51,615 nucleotides of DNA, taken from positions 1 through 51,615 of the forward strand of contig CAZFJP010000001.1 in assembly GCA_964518965.1 (NCBI GenBank). The letters are read 5' to 3'. Source of the stretch: an uncultured Candidatus Saccharibacteria bacterium. Lineage in GTDB: Bacteria > Patescibacteriota > SOKK01. The notes beneath the pieces were generated by a model that saw nothing but the letters and a program-made list of their open reading frames with translations, was not told the DNA's origin and searched no databases. Shown here one piece after another: positions 3,533 to 51,615 of this stretch (position 1 is the stretch's first letter; the number at the start of each line of letters is the position of its first letter). The translations under genes and the position numbers were made by a program.

Positions 3533-3561
3533 TTGACAAAGAGGCATTTTTTTGATATAAT
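3533..3561 (+). promoter_or_regulatory. Consensus sigma70 promoter with inverted repeat flanking -35
   Basis: TTGACA-17-TATAAT with extended TG; AAAAATGTCT (3516) / AGGCATTTTT (3542). Confidence 0.85.
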
Positions 3562-9737: not shown

Positions 9738-12164
9738 ATGTTTACTAACGACAAGATAAAACCAAGATTGATTACGACTGAAATGGAACAGTCCTATCTG
9801 GACTACGCTATGTCGGTTATTATTGCACGTGCTTTACCCGATGTCCGTGATGGTTTGAAACCAGTTCATCGTCGTATTCTTTATGCAATGCATTCTTTGG
9901 GATTGAAATATTCTGGGAAATTTCGTAAAAGTGCGACAGTTGTCGGGGAAGTTTTAGGTAAATACCATCCGCATGGCGATCTTGCAGTTTATGAATCTTT
10001 AGTGCGTATGGCGCAGGATTTTTCAATGCGTTATCCGTTAGTTGCGGGACAGGGTAACTTTGGTTCTATGGATGGTGATAATGCTGCGGCGATGCGTTAT
10101 ACCGAAGCAAAAACGGCGCAAATTACTGATGAACTGTTGGTTGATATTGAAAAGGAAACTGTTGATTTTATTCCTAATTATGATGGTTCGAAGAAAGAAC
10201 CCAAGGTTTTACCGGCAAAATTACCGCAATTACTTTTGAACGGTACAATGGGTATTGCGGTTGGAATGGCAACAAATATTCCGCCGCATAATTTACGAGA
10301 AGTAGTAGATAGTATTGTTTATTTGATTGAACATCCGGATTCTTCCGTGCGGGATTTAATGCAGTTTGTCAAAGGTCCTGATTTCCCGACCGGAGGGATT
10401 GTTTATAACGAAAAAGATATTGAAGCTGCTTATGCAACTGGCAAAGGCAAAATTGTCGTTCGTGGCAAAGCGGTAATTGAGGAAGTCAAGAAGGATCGTT
10501 TTCGTATTGTAATTACTGAAATTCCTTACCAAGTAAATAAAGCGGAAATGCTGGCAAAAATTGCTAATTTGGTCAAAGAGAAAAAAATTGTTGGCGTTCA
10601 GGATTTACGCGATGAGTCCAATAAAGACGGAATCCAGGTTGTTTTGGAGCTTAGAAAAGGCGCTTTTCCAAACAAAATTTTAAATCAGCTTTATAAATAT
10701 ACCAGCTTACAGGATTCCTTCCATGTGAATATGCTTGCTCTTATTGACGGCATTCAGCCGCAAGTGATGAGTTTGAAGATGATTTTGGAGGAGTACATCA
10801 AGCATCGCAAGGTAGTGGTTACTCGTCGTACTCAATTTGAATTAAAGAAAGCAAAAGAACGTTTGCATATTTTGGAAGGATTGAAAATTGCTTTGGATCA
10901 TTTGGATGCAGTGATTAAAACAATTCGTGCTTCCAAAACCAAAGAAGATGCTCATAAGAATTTGATGAGGAAGTTTAAGCTCTCTGATCGGCAGTCGCAA
11001 GCAATTCTAGAAATGAAATTGCAATCCTTGGCAGCATTAGAGCGGAAGAAAGTGGAAGATGAATATGAAGAGAAGAAAAGGTTGATTGCGGAATTAGAAC
11101 TAATCTTAAAAAGTCCCCAAAAGATTCTAGGGATTATCAAAAGAGAACTCATCGAGCTTAAAAATAAATATGGCGATGATCGTCGCACAGAAGTAGTCAG
11201 ACAGCCGGTTGGTCATTTTGTGCAAGAGGATTTAGTGGCGAACGATCCGATGATTGTTATTTTGACTAAGAGTGGTTATATCAAACGTTTGGCACCCTCT
11301 GTTTATCATGCTCAAAAACGTGGTGGTAAAGGAGTAAGAGGGGTAACTACCCGAGAAGAGGATGTTGTGGAAGAATTAATTTTCACTAATACCCATGATG
11401 ACATTTTGTTCTTCAGTAACAGTGGTAAAGTTTTTCAAGCCAAGGTTTATGAAATTCCAGAAGCAAGTCGTACTGCCAAGGGGCAGTCAGTAATGAATTT
11501 CTTGCAAATGGGAATGGATGAAAAAATTACTGCAGTAGTTAATATTCCTAAGGAAAAGCCATTTAGGTATTTAATGATGATTACCTATAAAGGTGTGGTG
11601 AAAAAAGTTTCTGTGGAAGATTTCAAGCATGTTCGTCGTAGTGGTTTGATTGCGATTAAATTACGACCAGATGATTTCTTGGGATGGGTTTGTGGTACTA
11701 CTTCCGATTGCGAAATTATTTTAGCGACTGCAAATGGTCAAGCGATTCGTTTTAAAGAATCGCAAGTGCGACCGATAGGTCGTAATGCTAGTGGAGTAAG
11801 AGGTATTAGATTAAAAGGTGATGATTATGTTATTGGTGCAAGTAACATTCTAGATCCAAATGCGGATTTGTTAATTGTTACTGAAAATGGTTTTGGGAAG
11901 CGGACAGAATTAAATAAATATAAGGTTCAGGCACGAGGCGGAAGTGGAATTAAGACCGCGAAAATAACCGAGCGCAATGGTAAACTAGTAGATATGCGAA
12001 TTGTTCCAAGTGAGGAAGTAGATTTGATTGCCATTAGTAGTAAAGGACAAATTATTCGTTTACCGATAAAAGGGATCTCCAAACAAGGCAGAGCGACGCA
12101 AGGAGTGCGGATCATGAGGTTAGATGCAGGGGATAAGGTGGCATCGGTGACGTTGGTGGGCTAA
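9738..12164 (+). CDS. gyrA: DNA gyrase subunit A
   Basis: [23 protein letters not shown], GyrA-box QKRGGKG, pinwheel CTD. Confidence 0.97.
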
Positions 12165-12175
12165 CAATCTTTATT

Positions 12176-12201
12176 AAGGCAGCTCTCTTAGCTGCCTTTT
12201 T
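12176..12201 (+). terminator. gyrA terminator
   Basis: AAGGCAGCT-CTCTT-AGCTGCCTT followed by TTT. Confidence 0.85.
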
Positions 12202-12202
12202 G

Positions 12203-12236
12203 GTAGGAAAATTCTGCCATTCAGCAGGATTCTTAC
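12203..12236. repeat. Degenerate GTAG-type REP-like palindrome
   Basis: GTAGGAAAATTCTGC-CATTCA-GCAGGATTCTTAC. Confidence 0.45.
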
Positions 12237-12263
12237 TTTTAAATGAATGATGGATTAAGGTTA

Positions 12264-12542
12264 AGAAAAACCCCGACGCAAGATGCACGTCGGGGTAAGA
12301 AAAGGGTAGGGGGTGGGGGTGCCCGCCCCCGGTTTAAGATACTATGAGAGGGAGGTGGACAAAGTAGAATGGCGAGACGGGAGATCTACTGAATGCTAGA
12401 TCTCCGATCGCTATAATCTTTCCTTTGCTCCCTCTCGTTAAAGAAATTTCAGTCCTTTTTGGTTGGGAGTTTCTCCCTCCCAACGAAAAAGGGCTTAAAT
12501 AAGCGAAATTTTTAAAAGTCACTTTTTGGCTACGGCATGAAC
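12264..12542 (-). ncRNA. Candidate ~280-nt structured ncRNA of unrecognised family
   Basis: Minus-strand TTGACA(12576-12571)-17-TGCTATATT promoter, two long hairpins plus a short one, terminator CCCCGACG/CGTCGGGG with U-run, no credible ORF. Confidence 0.65.
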
Positions 12543-12626
12543 ACCCTAATATAGCATATCTGACTATCCTTGTCAAGTTTTACAGGTAAGATGAGGTTTG
12601 AAAGTTAGTTCAAACAAGCTACAATG

Positions 12627-12700
12627 AAAATTGACAATGTAAAATGGAGAATGGAAAATTTAGATTTAACATTCTACATTCTCCATTATACATATTACAT
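12627..12700. repeat. Inverted heptamer array
   Basis: ACAATGT AAAATGG AGAATGG AAAATTT / ATTCTAC ATTCTCC ATTATAC. Confidence 0.85.
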
Positions 12701-12709
12701 AACTAAAAA

Positions 12710-14386
12710 ATGTCTAACATTTTCTTAGAAATCGGAATCTTAATTGTTCTTGCAGGAGTAGGGGCACTGGTTGCTCGTTTGTTACGACAACCATTGATTC
12801 CACTCTATTTACTTGTCGGGATTTTAATTGGACCAGTTTTAAAACTGGTAAATAACCAAGAAGTAATTTTAACTTTTTCCGAAATTGGTATTGCTCTACT
12901 TTTATTTGTTGTTGGATTAAAAATTGATTTAAGTAAATTAAAAAGCGTTGCTAAAATTGTAATTTATGGGGGAATAATTAAATTTATTCTTCTTGCTTTG
13001 CTAGGGTTTTTATTGGCAAAGTTCTTAAACTTTAGTTATCCCGCTTCGCTTTATTTGGGAATAGCAGTTGCTTTCGGTAGTACGATGGTGGTATTGAAAA
13101 TTCTTTCTGACCGTCAGGAGCTTAACTCTTTACATGGAAGACTAGTAACTGGCTTCTTACTCTTGGAGGATGTTTTAATTGTCTTAACATTTACGATATT
13201 TTCCAGTTTGGGAGATTTCTCTTTCCTAAGCTTAGTTCTTGCTTTGGGGAAGGGTATTGGTCTGCTTCTTTTGGTTGTTCTTTTCAGCCGTTTGGTCTTT
13301 CCTTGGCTTTTCCGCTACGCTTCCCAGAATGAAGAGTTATTGCTAATTCTTGCGATTGGTTGTTGTTTTGGATTTGCAATGCTAGCTTATTTTCTTGGTT
13401 TTTCAATTGCGATTGGTGCTTTTTTTGCAGGGGTAGGATTAGCTAATCTTCCTTATCATTTTGCCATTGCTGGCAAAGCAAAAATCCTCCGCGATTTCTT
13501 TGCAGCAATTTTCTTTGTTGCCTTGGGGATGCAAGTAGTATTAAGTAGTCTTAGAACAATTCTTGTTCCTTTGATTGCTTTTACTCTTTTTGTCATTATT
13601 GTTAATCCCCTAATGACCTCTTTGATTACGGGAATTTTTGGTTATCGCCGGCGTACTATTTTTCTTACAGCAGTATTTTTAATTCCCACTAGTGAGTTTG
13701 CTTTAATCATGGTTGCTGAAGGAGTTAAGCGTAATGTGATTGATCATAATGTTTTTGCTCTGGTGGTAGGACTAGCGATGGTTACAATTACAGCGGTTTC
13801 CTATCTAACGAAGTTTGACTGGCAGTTTTATCAGATACTTAAATGGCCAATGTTTTTATTTGAAAAGTTGAACAAGCGTAAGGTAGAAACGATAGCGCTT
13901 CATCCTCATCGTGACCACGAAAAGAAAATTGTTCTTTGCGGTGTCGATCGTCTCGGCCATAAAATTTTACACGCTTTGAGAAGTATGGGAGAAGAGGTTT
14001 TGGCGGTTGATTTAAACCCTGATATTGCTGAAAAACTAGCCCAACAAAAAATCCCCGTTTTGTATGGAGATATCAACGATCCGGAGATTCTGCAAAAGGT
14101 AGAGCTAAGACACACTAAAGCGATTATTTCTACGATCCCTGATAAACATGACAACTTATTACTTTTAGAATTAGTCGGAAAATCACGTCGGATTATAGTT
14201 TGTGTCACCGCATCTAATGCTTCTGATGCGTTGGAGTTCTACAAACGAGGTGCGGACTATGTGATTATCCCCAAATTTTTAGGCGGAGAATATATGGCAT
14301 TATTTCTAAAGAGTTTGGATAAGCGTTTTGATAGAATCAGAAATCGTCGCAAAGGACACTTAAAAGAGTTAAAGCTTTTAGTGTAG
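12710..14386 (+). CDS. CPA2 (Kef-type) cation:proton antiporter with C-terminal TrkA-N/RCK domain
   Basis: Many TM helices, FGSTMVVLKIL, LLLED, RDFFAAIFFVALG; C-terminal IVLCGVDRLG...YGD...GADYVI. Confidence 0.9.
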   Translation: MSNIFLEIGILIVLAGVGALVARLLRQPLIPLYLLVGILIGPVLKLVNNQEVILTFSEIGIALLLFVVGLKIDLSKLKSVAKIVIYGGIIKFILLALLGFLLAKFLNFSYPASLYLGIAVAFGSTMVVLKILSDRQELNSLHGRLVTGFLLLEDVLIVLTFTIFSSLGDFSFLSLVLALGKGIGLLLLVVLFSRLVFPWLFRYASQNEELLLILAIGCCFGFAMLAYFLGFSIAIGAFFAGVGLANLPYHFAIAGKAKILRDFFAAIFFVALGMQVVLSSLRTILVPLIAFTLFVIIVNPLMTSLITGIFGYRRRTIFLTAVFLIPTSEFALIMVAEGVKRNVIDHNVFALVVGLAMVTITAVSYLTKFDWQFYQILKWPMFLFEKLNKRKVETIALHPHRDHEKKIVLCGVDRLGHKILHALRSMGEEVLAVDLNPDIAEKLAQQKIPVLYGDINDPEILQKVELRHTKAIISTIPDKHDNLLLLELVGKSRRIIVCVTASNASDALEFYKRGADYVIIPKFLGGEYMALFLKSLDKRFDRIRNRRKGHLKELKLLV

Positions 14387-50612: not shown

Positions 50613-50641
50613 TTGACAGAAAGGCGTTTTTTTGATATAAT
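50613..50641 (+). promoter_or_regulatory. Consensus sigma70 promoter with no downstream sense gene
   Basis: TTGACA-17-TATAAT with extended TG; near copy of the promoter at 3533. Confidence 0.8.
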
Positions 50642-50674
50642 TAAGTAACAGTCATTTTGAAATAAAAATTAAAA

Positions 50675-50705
50675 GAAAAAGGCCCACACACGTATGTGCA
50701 GGCCT
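50675..50705 (-). terminator. Terminator of the foreign-looking gene
   Basis: Minus strand AGGCCTGCACA-TACG-TGTGTGGGCCT-TTTT. Confidence 0.8.
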
Positions 50706-50722
50706 AAGATTCGGAGGGGTTG

Positions 50723-51514
50723 TCAGCGAAACATCGCCTTCACCCGGCCCAAGGAGGTCGGACTTATGGCAGAGTTGCTGGAACCCTTACTGTAGTAGAT
50801 GTCGTATCCGCCGACGGAGCCGGGAGCGGACCACAACAGAATGTTGTAGCCGCCGATGGCGCCGAGGGTAGGGCAACGTTCGCTGTCGCCGGTGTTAACT
50901 TCGGTGATCGGTTGTCTGGTAGACCAGGTTCCGCCGCTGCCGAAGCTTTCGAACAAGTCGGAGTTATTGCTCACGGCGAGGTAATCGCCGCTGAAACGTA
51001 ATCCTGAGGCAACCACGAAGCCGAGGTTGGTGATTTCCTGGGGGTTGGTATAAGGATACGGCGCCCAGAACTTTTTCCCGTCTTCGTAGTCAACCTGAAG
51101 TTCTTTGCCCACTGAACGCCAGGCACAGGTGATACCGGTGGGGTAATGCGGATTGCGGTTCCAGGCGGACATAGCACTGCCACGGGTCCAGTTAATTCCG
51201 TCGAGGGAAGTTATCGGCAGGACGTCATAGTCATCGCCGATGAGACCTTCCCTCTTGCCGGGATCGATGGTGGCACATCCGATGGTACCAAGGCCGTTAC
51301 AAGGTTGAGCTGTGGTAGACCAGTTGTAACCGCCAAGGTAGGCGTGTAGGTAGAGAAGGGAACTTCTTAACTTGTACATGTCGCCATTGGAGGCGATCGT
51401 TTGGGGGTAATCATCGCCCGTGGTATTGACACCGGGTGCCAGTGTCCGTGGCCCCCACTGCGTTGCTGACGCAGCGGTTACCAGACATAGCAAAAGATAA
51501 GCTACTTTACGCAT
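50723..51514 (-). CDS. Secreted PD40/beta-propeller-like protein with C-terminal PTSLGRVKAMFR motif
   Basis: Signal peptide; GVNTTGDD and EVNTGDSERCP...GGYDIYYS blades; TTGACT-17-TATAGT (51608-51580); AGGAGG SD; visibly GC-rich. Confidence 0.8.
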   Translation of the reverse strand: MRKVAYLLLCLVTAASATQWGPRTLAPGVNTTGDDYPQTIASNGDMYKLRSSLLYLHAYLGGYNWSTTAQPCNGLGTIGCATIDPGKREGLIGDDYDVLPITSLDGINWTRGSAMSAWNRNPHYPTGITCAWRSVGKELQVDYEDGKKFWAPYPYTNPQEITNLGFVVASGLRFSGDYLAVSNNSDLFESFGSGGTWSTRQPITEVNTGDSERCPTLGAIGGYNILLWSAPGSVGGYDIYYSKGSSNSAISPTSLGRVKAMFR

Positions 51515-51615
51515 GTATATCGCCTCCTACCACTTGGTGTGGTGGAAAAGGTTAAGTTGTCAACGAACGGAGAGAAGTCACTATATCACACTTCTATCCA
51601 AAAGTCAAGCTTTGA

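Follow-up and report, generated by a model that had tools for sequence, protein, structure and literature searches.

A stretch of ~280 nt on the minus strand of the 545-bp ORF-free gap between gyrA and a gene for a Kef/NhaP-type antiporter, in the genome of a hot-spring member of the CPR/Patescibacteria (G000), is on balance best explained as a genuine, independently transcribed and lineage-restricted gene for a structured non-coding RNA (ncRNA), which would probably act in trans. This assessment draws on the signals that surround the stretch as a complete predicted transcription unit and on its comparison with relatives. In the more general statement, namely that the locus is a real ncRNA gene of whatever function, we have good confidence; given such a gene, pairing with an RNA target, binding of a protein and something else altogether would be roughly equally likely, at about a third each. 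The RNA has very probably not been catalogued before, and its general kind is already known.

To our knowledge, RNA-based regulation in the CPR/Patescibacteria is almost unexplored, and these bacteria are devoid of many standard regulators. Because it combines a strong promoter with a structure under selection and is kept in both genomes of its class, the RNA described here is a concrete candidate for regulation of this type. It is also a usable test case, being short, single-copy and endowed with clear predicted ends, whereas its wider importance is for now limited by its narrow distribution.

Genomic setting and transcription signals

The source genome comprises 0.68 Mb in 18 contigs and is 94% complete; the only other species genome of its class is G001. 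In the window, by which we mean the whole stretch of 51,615 nucleotides that was analysed and to which coordinates refer unless a contig is named, gyrA (9738-12164, plus strand) borders the gap on one side and converges on the RNA gene, and the antiporter gene, which encodes a TrkA_N domain (12710-14386, plus strand), is divergent from it. The candidate gene extends on the minus strand from promoter to terminator and is present in a single copy in the genome. Its G+C content reaches 0.53 compared to a genome mean of 0.39, and a screen of the genome (39% G+C) for G+C islands was not discriminating. A search for sequencing runs containing this DNA gave 3 DNA runs of hot-spring metagenomes, belonging to three studies and one of them possibly its source, and no RNA run. 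The contigs of these 3 runs carry the locus in identical form with zero variants, and for this reason no natural covariation can be drawn from them. At 12637-12693, where the Kef-type gene has its promoter region, lies an AT-rich inverted repeat with 23-nt arms composed of AATGGAG/AATGGAA-like heptamers, similar copies of which occur on other contigs of the metagenome runs X1 and X2.

The original prediction placed a near-consensus promoter, TTGACA followed by a 17-nt spacer, on the minus strand, and it is found there as a sigma-70-type promoter at 12576-12548, consisting of the -35 box TTGACA (12576-12571), the 17-nt spacer and the extended -10 element TGCTATATT (TGnTATATT, 12556-12548, in which TATATT itself occupies 12553-12548 with TG ahead of it), and agreeing with the consensus at 11 of 12 positions plus the TG. 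Sites with at least 11 of the 12 consensus positions number 61 genome-wide, compared to 26-32 in five locally shuffled genomes; the TG extension is present in 31 of the 61, and the same five shuffled genomes yield 0-4 such extended sites. Since the excess is so pronounced for promoters of exactly this kind, the promoter of the RNA gene is, as judged from sequence statistics, very probably real.

From the distance to the -10 box we infer that transcription would start near 12542-12540, within a 5' segment (GGGUGUUCAUGCCGUAG..., 12545-12526, minus strand) which is predicted to be single-stranded and is conserved in relatives. This segment includes the mini-frame AUG-CCG-UAG (12538-12530, minus strand), which gives the Met-Pro-stop noted earlier for the ATG nearby. 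At the other end, the strong terminator that had been proposed is likewise present as an intrinsic terminator on the minus strand (12296-12264 including the U-tract), its stem-loop (12296-12270) having 11 pairs, 7 of them G-C, and a 5-nt loop. The tail of the stem reads TTTTCTT on the minus strand, the sequence after the stem-loop being UUUUUCUU; there is no T-run after the stem on the plus strand, such that the canonical terminator belongs to the minus strand only.

Strong promoters of one highly uniform form, TTGAC(A)-17-TGnTATAAT, with TAAGTAAC often coming next, are used throughout the genome, as for example at positions 3533, 26542 and 50613 of the window; two near-identical copies are located at C3:63940 and C3:64948. 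The perfect plus-strand promoter at 50613 stands ahead of an 880-nt stretch with 55% G+C (window 50613-51550), in which the only long frame, of 263 codons, lies on the minus strand (50723-51514) and which gives no Rfam match.

Predicted fold

The description of the ~280 nt as highly structured is borne out by the minimum free energy (MFE) of -104.5 kcal/mol, corresponding to z = -7.15, a stability that none of 200 dinucleotide shuffles attained. The fold of the plus strand is equally unusual (-121.0 kcal/mol, z -7.61), because only 3 of the 85 pairs in the predicted minus-strand structure are G:U pairs, and the folding by itself thus cannot pick the strand. Both the choice of strand and the case for a real gene accordingly rest on the transcription signals and the comparison with relatives, and not on the folding energy. 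In a scan of ORF-free gaps by fold z-score, which was partial (contigs C1-C6 only) and noisy (each window being compared to 15 mononucleotide shuffles), the region came 11th of 460 with its best window, so that the predicted fold is strong but not unique within this genome.

The transcript is predicted to begin, after its unpaired 5' segment, with a small hairpin AAGUGA/UCGCUU (12524-12501, minus strand, as are all elements given here). It is followed at 12500-12446 by hairpin 1 with its basal extension, CCUUUUU.GUUGGGAG / CUCCCAAC.AAAAAGG, an element predicted from the fold and also seen in relatives; it lies where it had been described, with the added detail that in its core (12492-12454) the 16-nt arms carry one C.C mismatch and are paired at 15 of 16 positions. 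The ~90-nt rod with internal loops that had been reported as hairpin 2 was recovered at 12436-12346 with all of its listed helices (GAGAGGGAG/CUCCCUCUC, CAAAG/CUUUG, GCGA/UCGC and the apical AGAUCUA/UAGAUCU), its 5' strand being purine-rich and its 3' strand pyrimidine-rich. The third, short hairpin of the same description corresponds to a predicted G/C stem, GGGGG.GGG....CCC.CCCCC, at 12330-12309, after which a C/U-rich linker (12308-12297) leads to the terminator.

The partial scan also returned six ORF-free windows with fold z-scores at least as strong as that of the RNA locus, namely C2:33750-33909 (minus), C3:13111-13270, C3:62003-62162 (minus), C2:11307-11466, C2:74658-74817 (minus) and C3:45832-45991 (minus), and these may represent additional structured RNAs or else palindromic repeats.

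Homologues in relatives

A homologue is present in both genomes of the class (G000 and G001) and on one metagenome contig, L060; as the G001 copy was read as L012/L059, the comparison comprises three sequences from two lineages. Each homologue is in divergent orientation to a Kef-type orthologue (67% amino-acid identity), beyond which the AMMECR1, Memo and radical-SAM genes are common to G000 and L060. The neighbour on the far side varies, being gyrA in G000 and an ORF-poor stretch of ~2.4 kb in L060. The earlier characterisation of the RNA as converging on gyrA therefore holds for G000 and not for the relatives, in which the RNA keeps the divergent Kef-type gene as its neighbour.

The spacer between the -35 box and the extended -10 element varies, but these two boxes themselves are identical in G001/L059 and in L060, and what is kept of the transcript is a 5' module of ~100 nt comprising the first ~20 transcribed bases and hairpin 1. 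Conserved boxes and a conserved module alongside a freely changing spacer form the pattern characteristic of a promoter with a functional 5' module behind it. In the 5' segment G000 differs from G001 and L060 by three purine transitions only, which leave a start codon and a stop codon in place each time; on the sequence evidence, these changes would fit a U-pairing seed and the preservation of a tiny frame equally. The relatives, too, are predicted to have a hairpin where the small 5' hairpin lies, but of different sequence. Hairpin 1 is conserved in all three sequences and is part of a covariance model built from them (R1), which recovers it in both genomes of the class. The sequence of the rod, by contrast with this module, is not conserved: the relatives carry a longer, branched rod of ~250 nt compared to ~90 nt, the RNA sequences of G000 and of the relatives cannot be aligned beyond ~100 nt, and the relatives' RNA of ~430 nt differs in length from that of G000 by ~150 nt. 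The copy of the G001 lineage ends in a terminal hairpin without a U-tract.

Searches beyond these sequences did not bring a more distant homologue to light. Among 61 genomes, blastn gave a meaningful match in G001 only, covering query bases 1-46, the four other matches having 22-34 nt and E values of 0.003-0.007. Model R1, built from 3 sequences, gave four marginal matches beyond G000 and G001 in 151 genomes of the phylum (E 0.014-0.075), all of which were rejected, one lying within a long frame and three being terminator-like GGCTTATTTAAGCC hairpins. A pattern scan of the genome contig collection produced 43 stretches where by our own estimate ~56 are expected by chance; of the three examined, one (L059) is that of G001 and the other two (L026 and L017) match by chance, and the remaining 40 were judged unrelated solely by their taxon labels. 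The same scan of the viral contig collection gave no match. A metagenome scan with the Kef alignment found 6 loci, of which only L060 has the RNA; in L061-L064, where the Kef-type protein shows 40-42% identity, the upstream gaps are short and without the motif, and L065 is likewise without it. As far as these data reach, the RNA would appear to be restricted to a small hot-spring class of the CPR/Patescibacteria.

Pairing and reading frames

The copies in L059 and L060 are separated by 26 substitutions and 16 gap columns, and all ten base pairs altered between them stay canonical: three are changed on both sides, seven on one side by way of G:U, and none is broken. This count refers to the 139 pairs predicted when L059 is folded by itself, five more pairs touching gaps, and RNAalifold identifies the same three compensatory pairs. 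When equally many substitutions were placed at random, a mean of 13.3 pairs were broken, 0 of 5000 trials were free of breakage and 0.1% had at least three compensatory pairs; because this null model assumes uniform and not transition-biased base changes, it overstates the expected breakage. Even with transitions only, for which we estimate that about one half of the pairs would be kept per change, seven of seven together with three double changes would still be unlikely. Moreover, on the opposite strand the seven G:U solutions would turn into A.C mismatches, which favours the strand read from the promoter. The pairing in the relatives is thus under selection, as far as sequence comparison can indicate, the compensatory changes being situated in the longer rod of the relatives and not in the sequence of G000 itself. 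Across the G000/G001 split, both-sided changes in the 5' module affect 2 of 24 predicted pairs, both in the poorly aligned small hairpin, and covariation at this distance is therefore thin.

A protein-coding gene was considered and rejected. A frame of 80 codons does cross the region (12576-12334), starting with a TTG inside the -35 box; it has no counterpart in G001, the longest frames of the G000 and G001 RNAs giving no alignment at E<=100, and the substitutions in the rod follow pairing. What the homologues conserve, then, is the promoter boxes, the 5' module and the base pairs, and not a frame.

Comparison with known RNAs

The Rfam covariance search suggested with the original prediction was run and gave no family match at the gathering score: with Rfam 15, the whole window yields only three tRNA matches, none of them at the RNA locus. 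At E<=10, the interval 12150-12720 gives 17 matches, all far under the cut-offs of their families, the best being a terminator-driven match to anti-hemB (24.5 compared to 49.5 bits). The Rfam models of cis-regulatory elements, that is, riboswitch aptamers and the T-box, have no match at the locus at this threshold, and ARAGORN predicts no tRNA or tmRNA there. The claim that the locus lacks the hallmarks of tmRNA, RNase P RNA and SRP RNA agrees with what the genome contains elsewhere: tmRNA was rejected at the locus, the genome's own copy being at C3:41523-41906 (188.7 bits), RNase P RNA was rejected in the same way, with a copy at C3:82102-82598 (182.2 bits), and SRP RNA was not detected in the genome. 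A likeness of AUUAGGGUG to the T-box consensus was judged coincidental, because the sequence overlaps the -10 box and RF00230 is without a match at E<=10. In the parts of the literature on SRP RNA or ncRNA in the CPR that were available, no description of the candidate RNA was found.

The possibility that the locus encodes a divergent SRP RNA of the large type with an Alu domain was taken up because ~280 nt fits the size of a large SRP RNA. The candidate resembles the large bacterial type (RF01854) in its length and long helix, and no SRP RNA was detected anywhere in the genome (RF00169 at E<=1, RF01854 at E<=10). Against this, neither model matches at 12150-12720 at E<=10, and the protein partners are missing: the SRP_SPB domain (PF02978) and the SRP54-type GTPase (PF00448) have no match in G000, a scan of the six reading frames of the genome gave no DT[AS]GR motif and no frame with the G1, G3 and G4 motifs together, and thus neither Ffh nor FtsY was found. 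The pattern extends to the phylum, for SRP RNA models match in 0 of 41 and 0 of 40 relatives, the SRP_SPB domain is likewise without a match in 41 relatives, none of 5 complete genomes yields an Ffh, and a true SRP GTPase occurs in 1 of 201 genomes by family search and 1 of 401 by protein search, the genome in both cases being G169, where the gene lies on a short contig. The loss of the two SRP subunits in many CPR bacteria has also been published (PMC8080830). In an assembly that is 94% complete the absence of Ffh from the genome is not proven; nevertheless, an identity as SRP RNA is excluded by a genome with neither Ffh nor FtsY, and we regard this reading as effectively refuted, with only a minute residual probability.

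The candidate shows the closest general likeness to the orphan, clade-restricted structured sRNAs, which are known as promoter-to-terminator units from screens of GC-rich intergenic regions. Like these, it is equipped with a sigma-70-type promoter and an intrinsic terminator of its own, lacks a conserved ORF, is richer in G+C than its surroundings, belongs to no Rfam family and occurs in close relatives only; it differs from them in that conservation is concentrated in a 5' module, behind which comes a rod whose length varies. Among the features by which stand-alone, trans-acting sRNAs are generically recognised, a promoter and terminator of their own, the lack of a conserved frame and conservation with selection on pairs are found here, the last from three sequences. 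The original view of a novel stand-alone ncRNA is thus supported, in so far as sequences can speak to it, by the lack of an Rfam family, the gene's own signals, the kept pairing and the lack of a conserved frame.

Alternative interpretations

Several other readings of the locus have to be weighed against an ncRNA acting in trans. One is a 6S RNA, a rod sequestering RNA polymerase and sigma-70, which in this deep lineage would have diverged so far that the Rfam model does not recognise it. The role would be vacant, since RF00013 has 0 matches genome-wide at E<=1, and the candidate is, like 6S RNA, strongly promoted, abundant-looking and stand-alone with long irregular helices, its rod being interrupted by internal loops. 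However, RF00013 does not match at the locus even at E<=10, and 6S RNA is not universal, being matched in only 5 of 14 control genomes. Furthermore, the MFE and centroid structures are both a series of separate hairpins and not one end-closed rod of ~180 nt with a central bubble, the largest internal loop of the predicted rod being 11 x 7, and the conserved part consists of the unpaired 5' end and hairpin 1, whereas the rod, ranging from ~90 to ~250 nt, is the least conserved element. Since no 6S RNA turned up genome-wide, a 6S-like role retains some plausibility in spite of the misfitting architecture, but we consider it unlikely. A similarly low probability may be assigned to an orphaned cis-regulatory leader (riboswitch, T-box or attenuator), which has either lost its downstream gene at a synteny breakpoint or acts by conditional read-through. 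The layout of promoter, conserved 5' domain, hairpins and terminator is that of a leader, synteny does break at this point (gyrA comes next in G000 and the ORF-poor stretch in L060), and the copy of the G001 lineage is without a U-tract after its last hairpin. Yet in G000 no gene on the same strand lies downstream, gyrA converging on the RNA; no cis-regulatory model of Rfam matches; and selection continues to act on the promoter and the pairing in lineages where no downstream gene is conserved.

Translation enters in two forms, either as a mini-frame [G/A]UG-UUC-[A/G]UG-CCG-UA[G/A] which couples a ribosome to the fold, or as the small protein of 80 codons. All three differences in the 5' segment keep an AUG or GUG start, the Pro codon and a UAG or UAA stop, and a stretch containing AGG lies directly upstream; but these Shine-Dalgarno-like bases are located between the -10 box and the expected start and hence are probably not transcribed, for which reason a ribosome-engaging RNA ranks low. 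In addition, the three changes are plain purine transitions, which are just as expected for a seed pairing with U; the longer frame suffers from its start inside the -35 box and its missing G001 counterpart; and substitutions in the rod track pairing and not codons. Taken together, a translated element of either form seems quite unlikely. Finally, the locus could contain no functional RNA at all, its hairpins being DNA-level or incidental structures (a terminator stack, an insulator or the remnant of an element) or part of a plus-strand 3' UTR of gyrA. The equally good fold of the plus strand, the similar z-scores in other intergenic windows of the genome and its dispersed palindromic repeats, one of them adjoining at 12637-12693, would agree with this. 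It is nonetheless improbable in view of the single copy of the locus, the promoter boxes that are conserved around a variable spacer in relatives in which gyrA is not adjacent, the pairs kept by G:U, which work only as minus-strand RNA, and the lack of a plus-strand T-run after the terminator stem.

Proposed mode of action and targets

For the preferred reading, a lineage-restricted ncRNA acting in trans, we would envisage that the strong, housekeeping-type promoter drives the synthesis of an RNA which ends at the intrinsic terminator, and with two such signals the RNA should be abundant and stable. Its functional core would be the ~100-nt 5' module, made up of the unpaired segment of ~20 nt, the small hairpin and hairpin 1, and the long rod would serve as a structural, lineage-variable extension, required to be paired but free in sequence and length. 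Action in trans, either as a riboregulator or as a protein-binding RNA, appears most likely, the recognition surface for the RNA target or the protein being presumably provided by the conserved unpaired 5' segment together with hairpin 1. Transcription, the ends of the RNA and the whole of this mechanism are inferred.

Target prediction with the 24-nt 5' segment gave as its best non-self site one of -32.1 kcal/mol at C10:38146-38185, inside a gene of the LytR_cpsA_psr (LCP) family. Three control seeds reached -26.4, -27.4 and -31.5 kcal/mol, such that this site is not clearly better, and it is not conserved in the G001 orthologue. A different pairing region is suggested by the sRNAs of the RsaE/RoxS type, which in Gram-positive bacteria base-pair by C-rich regions. 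The candidate likewise ends in a terminator and has a C-rich stretch, CACCCCCACCCCCUACCC (12317-12300), for which G-rich ribosome-binding sites would be possible pairing partners; it differs from this type in being much longer, in possessing a large rod and in having no Rfam RsaE match, its C-rich stretch is not confidently aligned in relatives, and the search with the 5' segment yielded no target.

A far-reaching proposal, to which we give little credence, is that the CPR bacteria lacking SRP possess a hitherto undescribed class of abundant ribonucleoprotein RNAs with a housekeeping role, of which the present RNA would be the first known member, with the 5' module engaging the ribosome or RNA polymerase and the rod acting as a scaffold, and that in relatives it heads an RNA island. 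If this were true, the 5' module, including the Met/Val-Pro-stop mini-frame, would work in a 6S-like manner or as a ribosome-sensing RNA, and the homologue of the relatives would head a multi-kilobase island of additional structured RNAs (L060 1-2000).

The ORF-poor stretch after the homologue in the relatives (~2.4 kb, L060 1-2000 on the minus strand and L059 1-480) is rich in G+C and has several features of its own. A second promoter of the TTGACA type lies near L060 1975, followed by a hairpin of ~60 nt (L060 ~1900-1840) in which the differences between L059 and L060 are apparently compensatory, and then by ~900 nt without an Rfam match. The stretch further contains two repeated promoter-to-terminator units, with terminators near 940 and 290, which include several frames of 10-15 codons with ribosome-binding sites, and it may thus represent further RNA genes or a peptide cassette.
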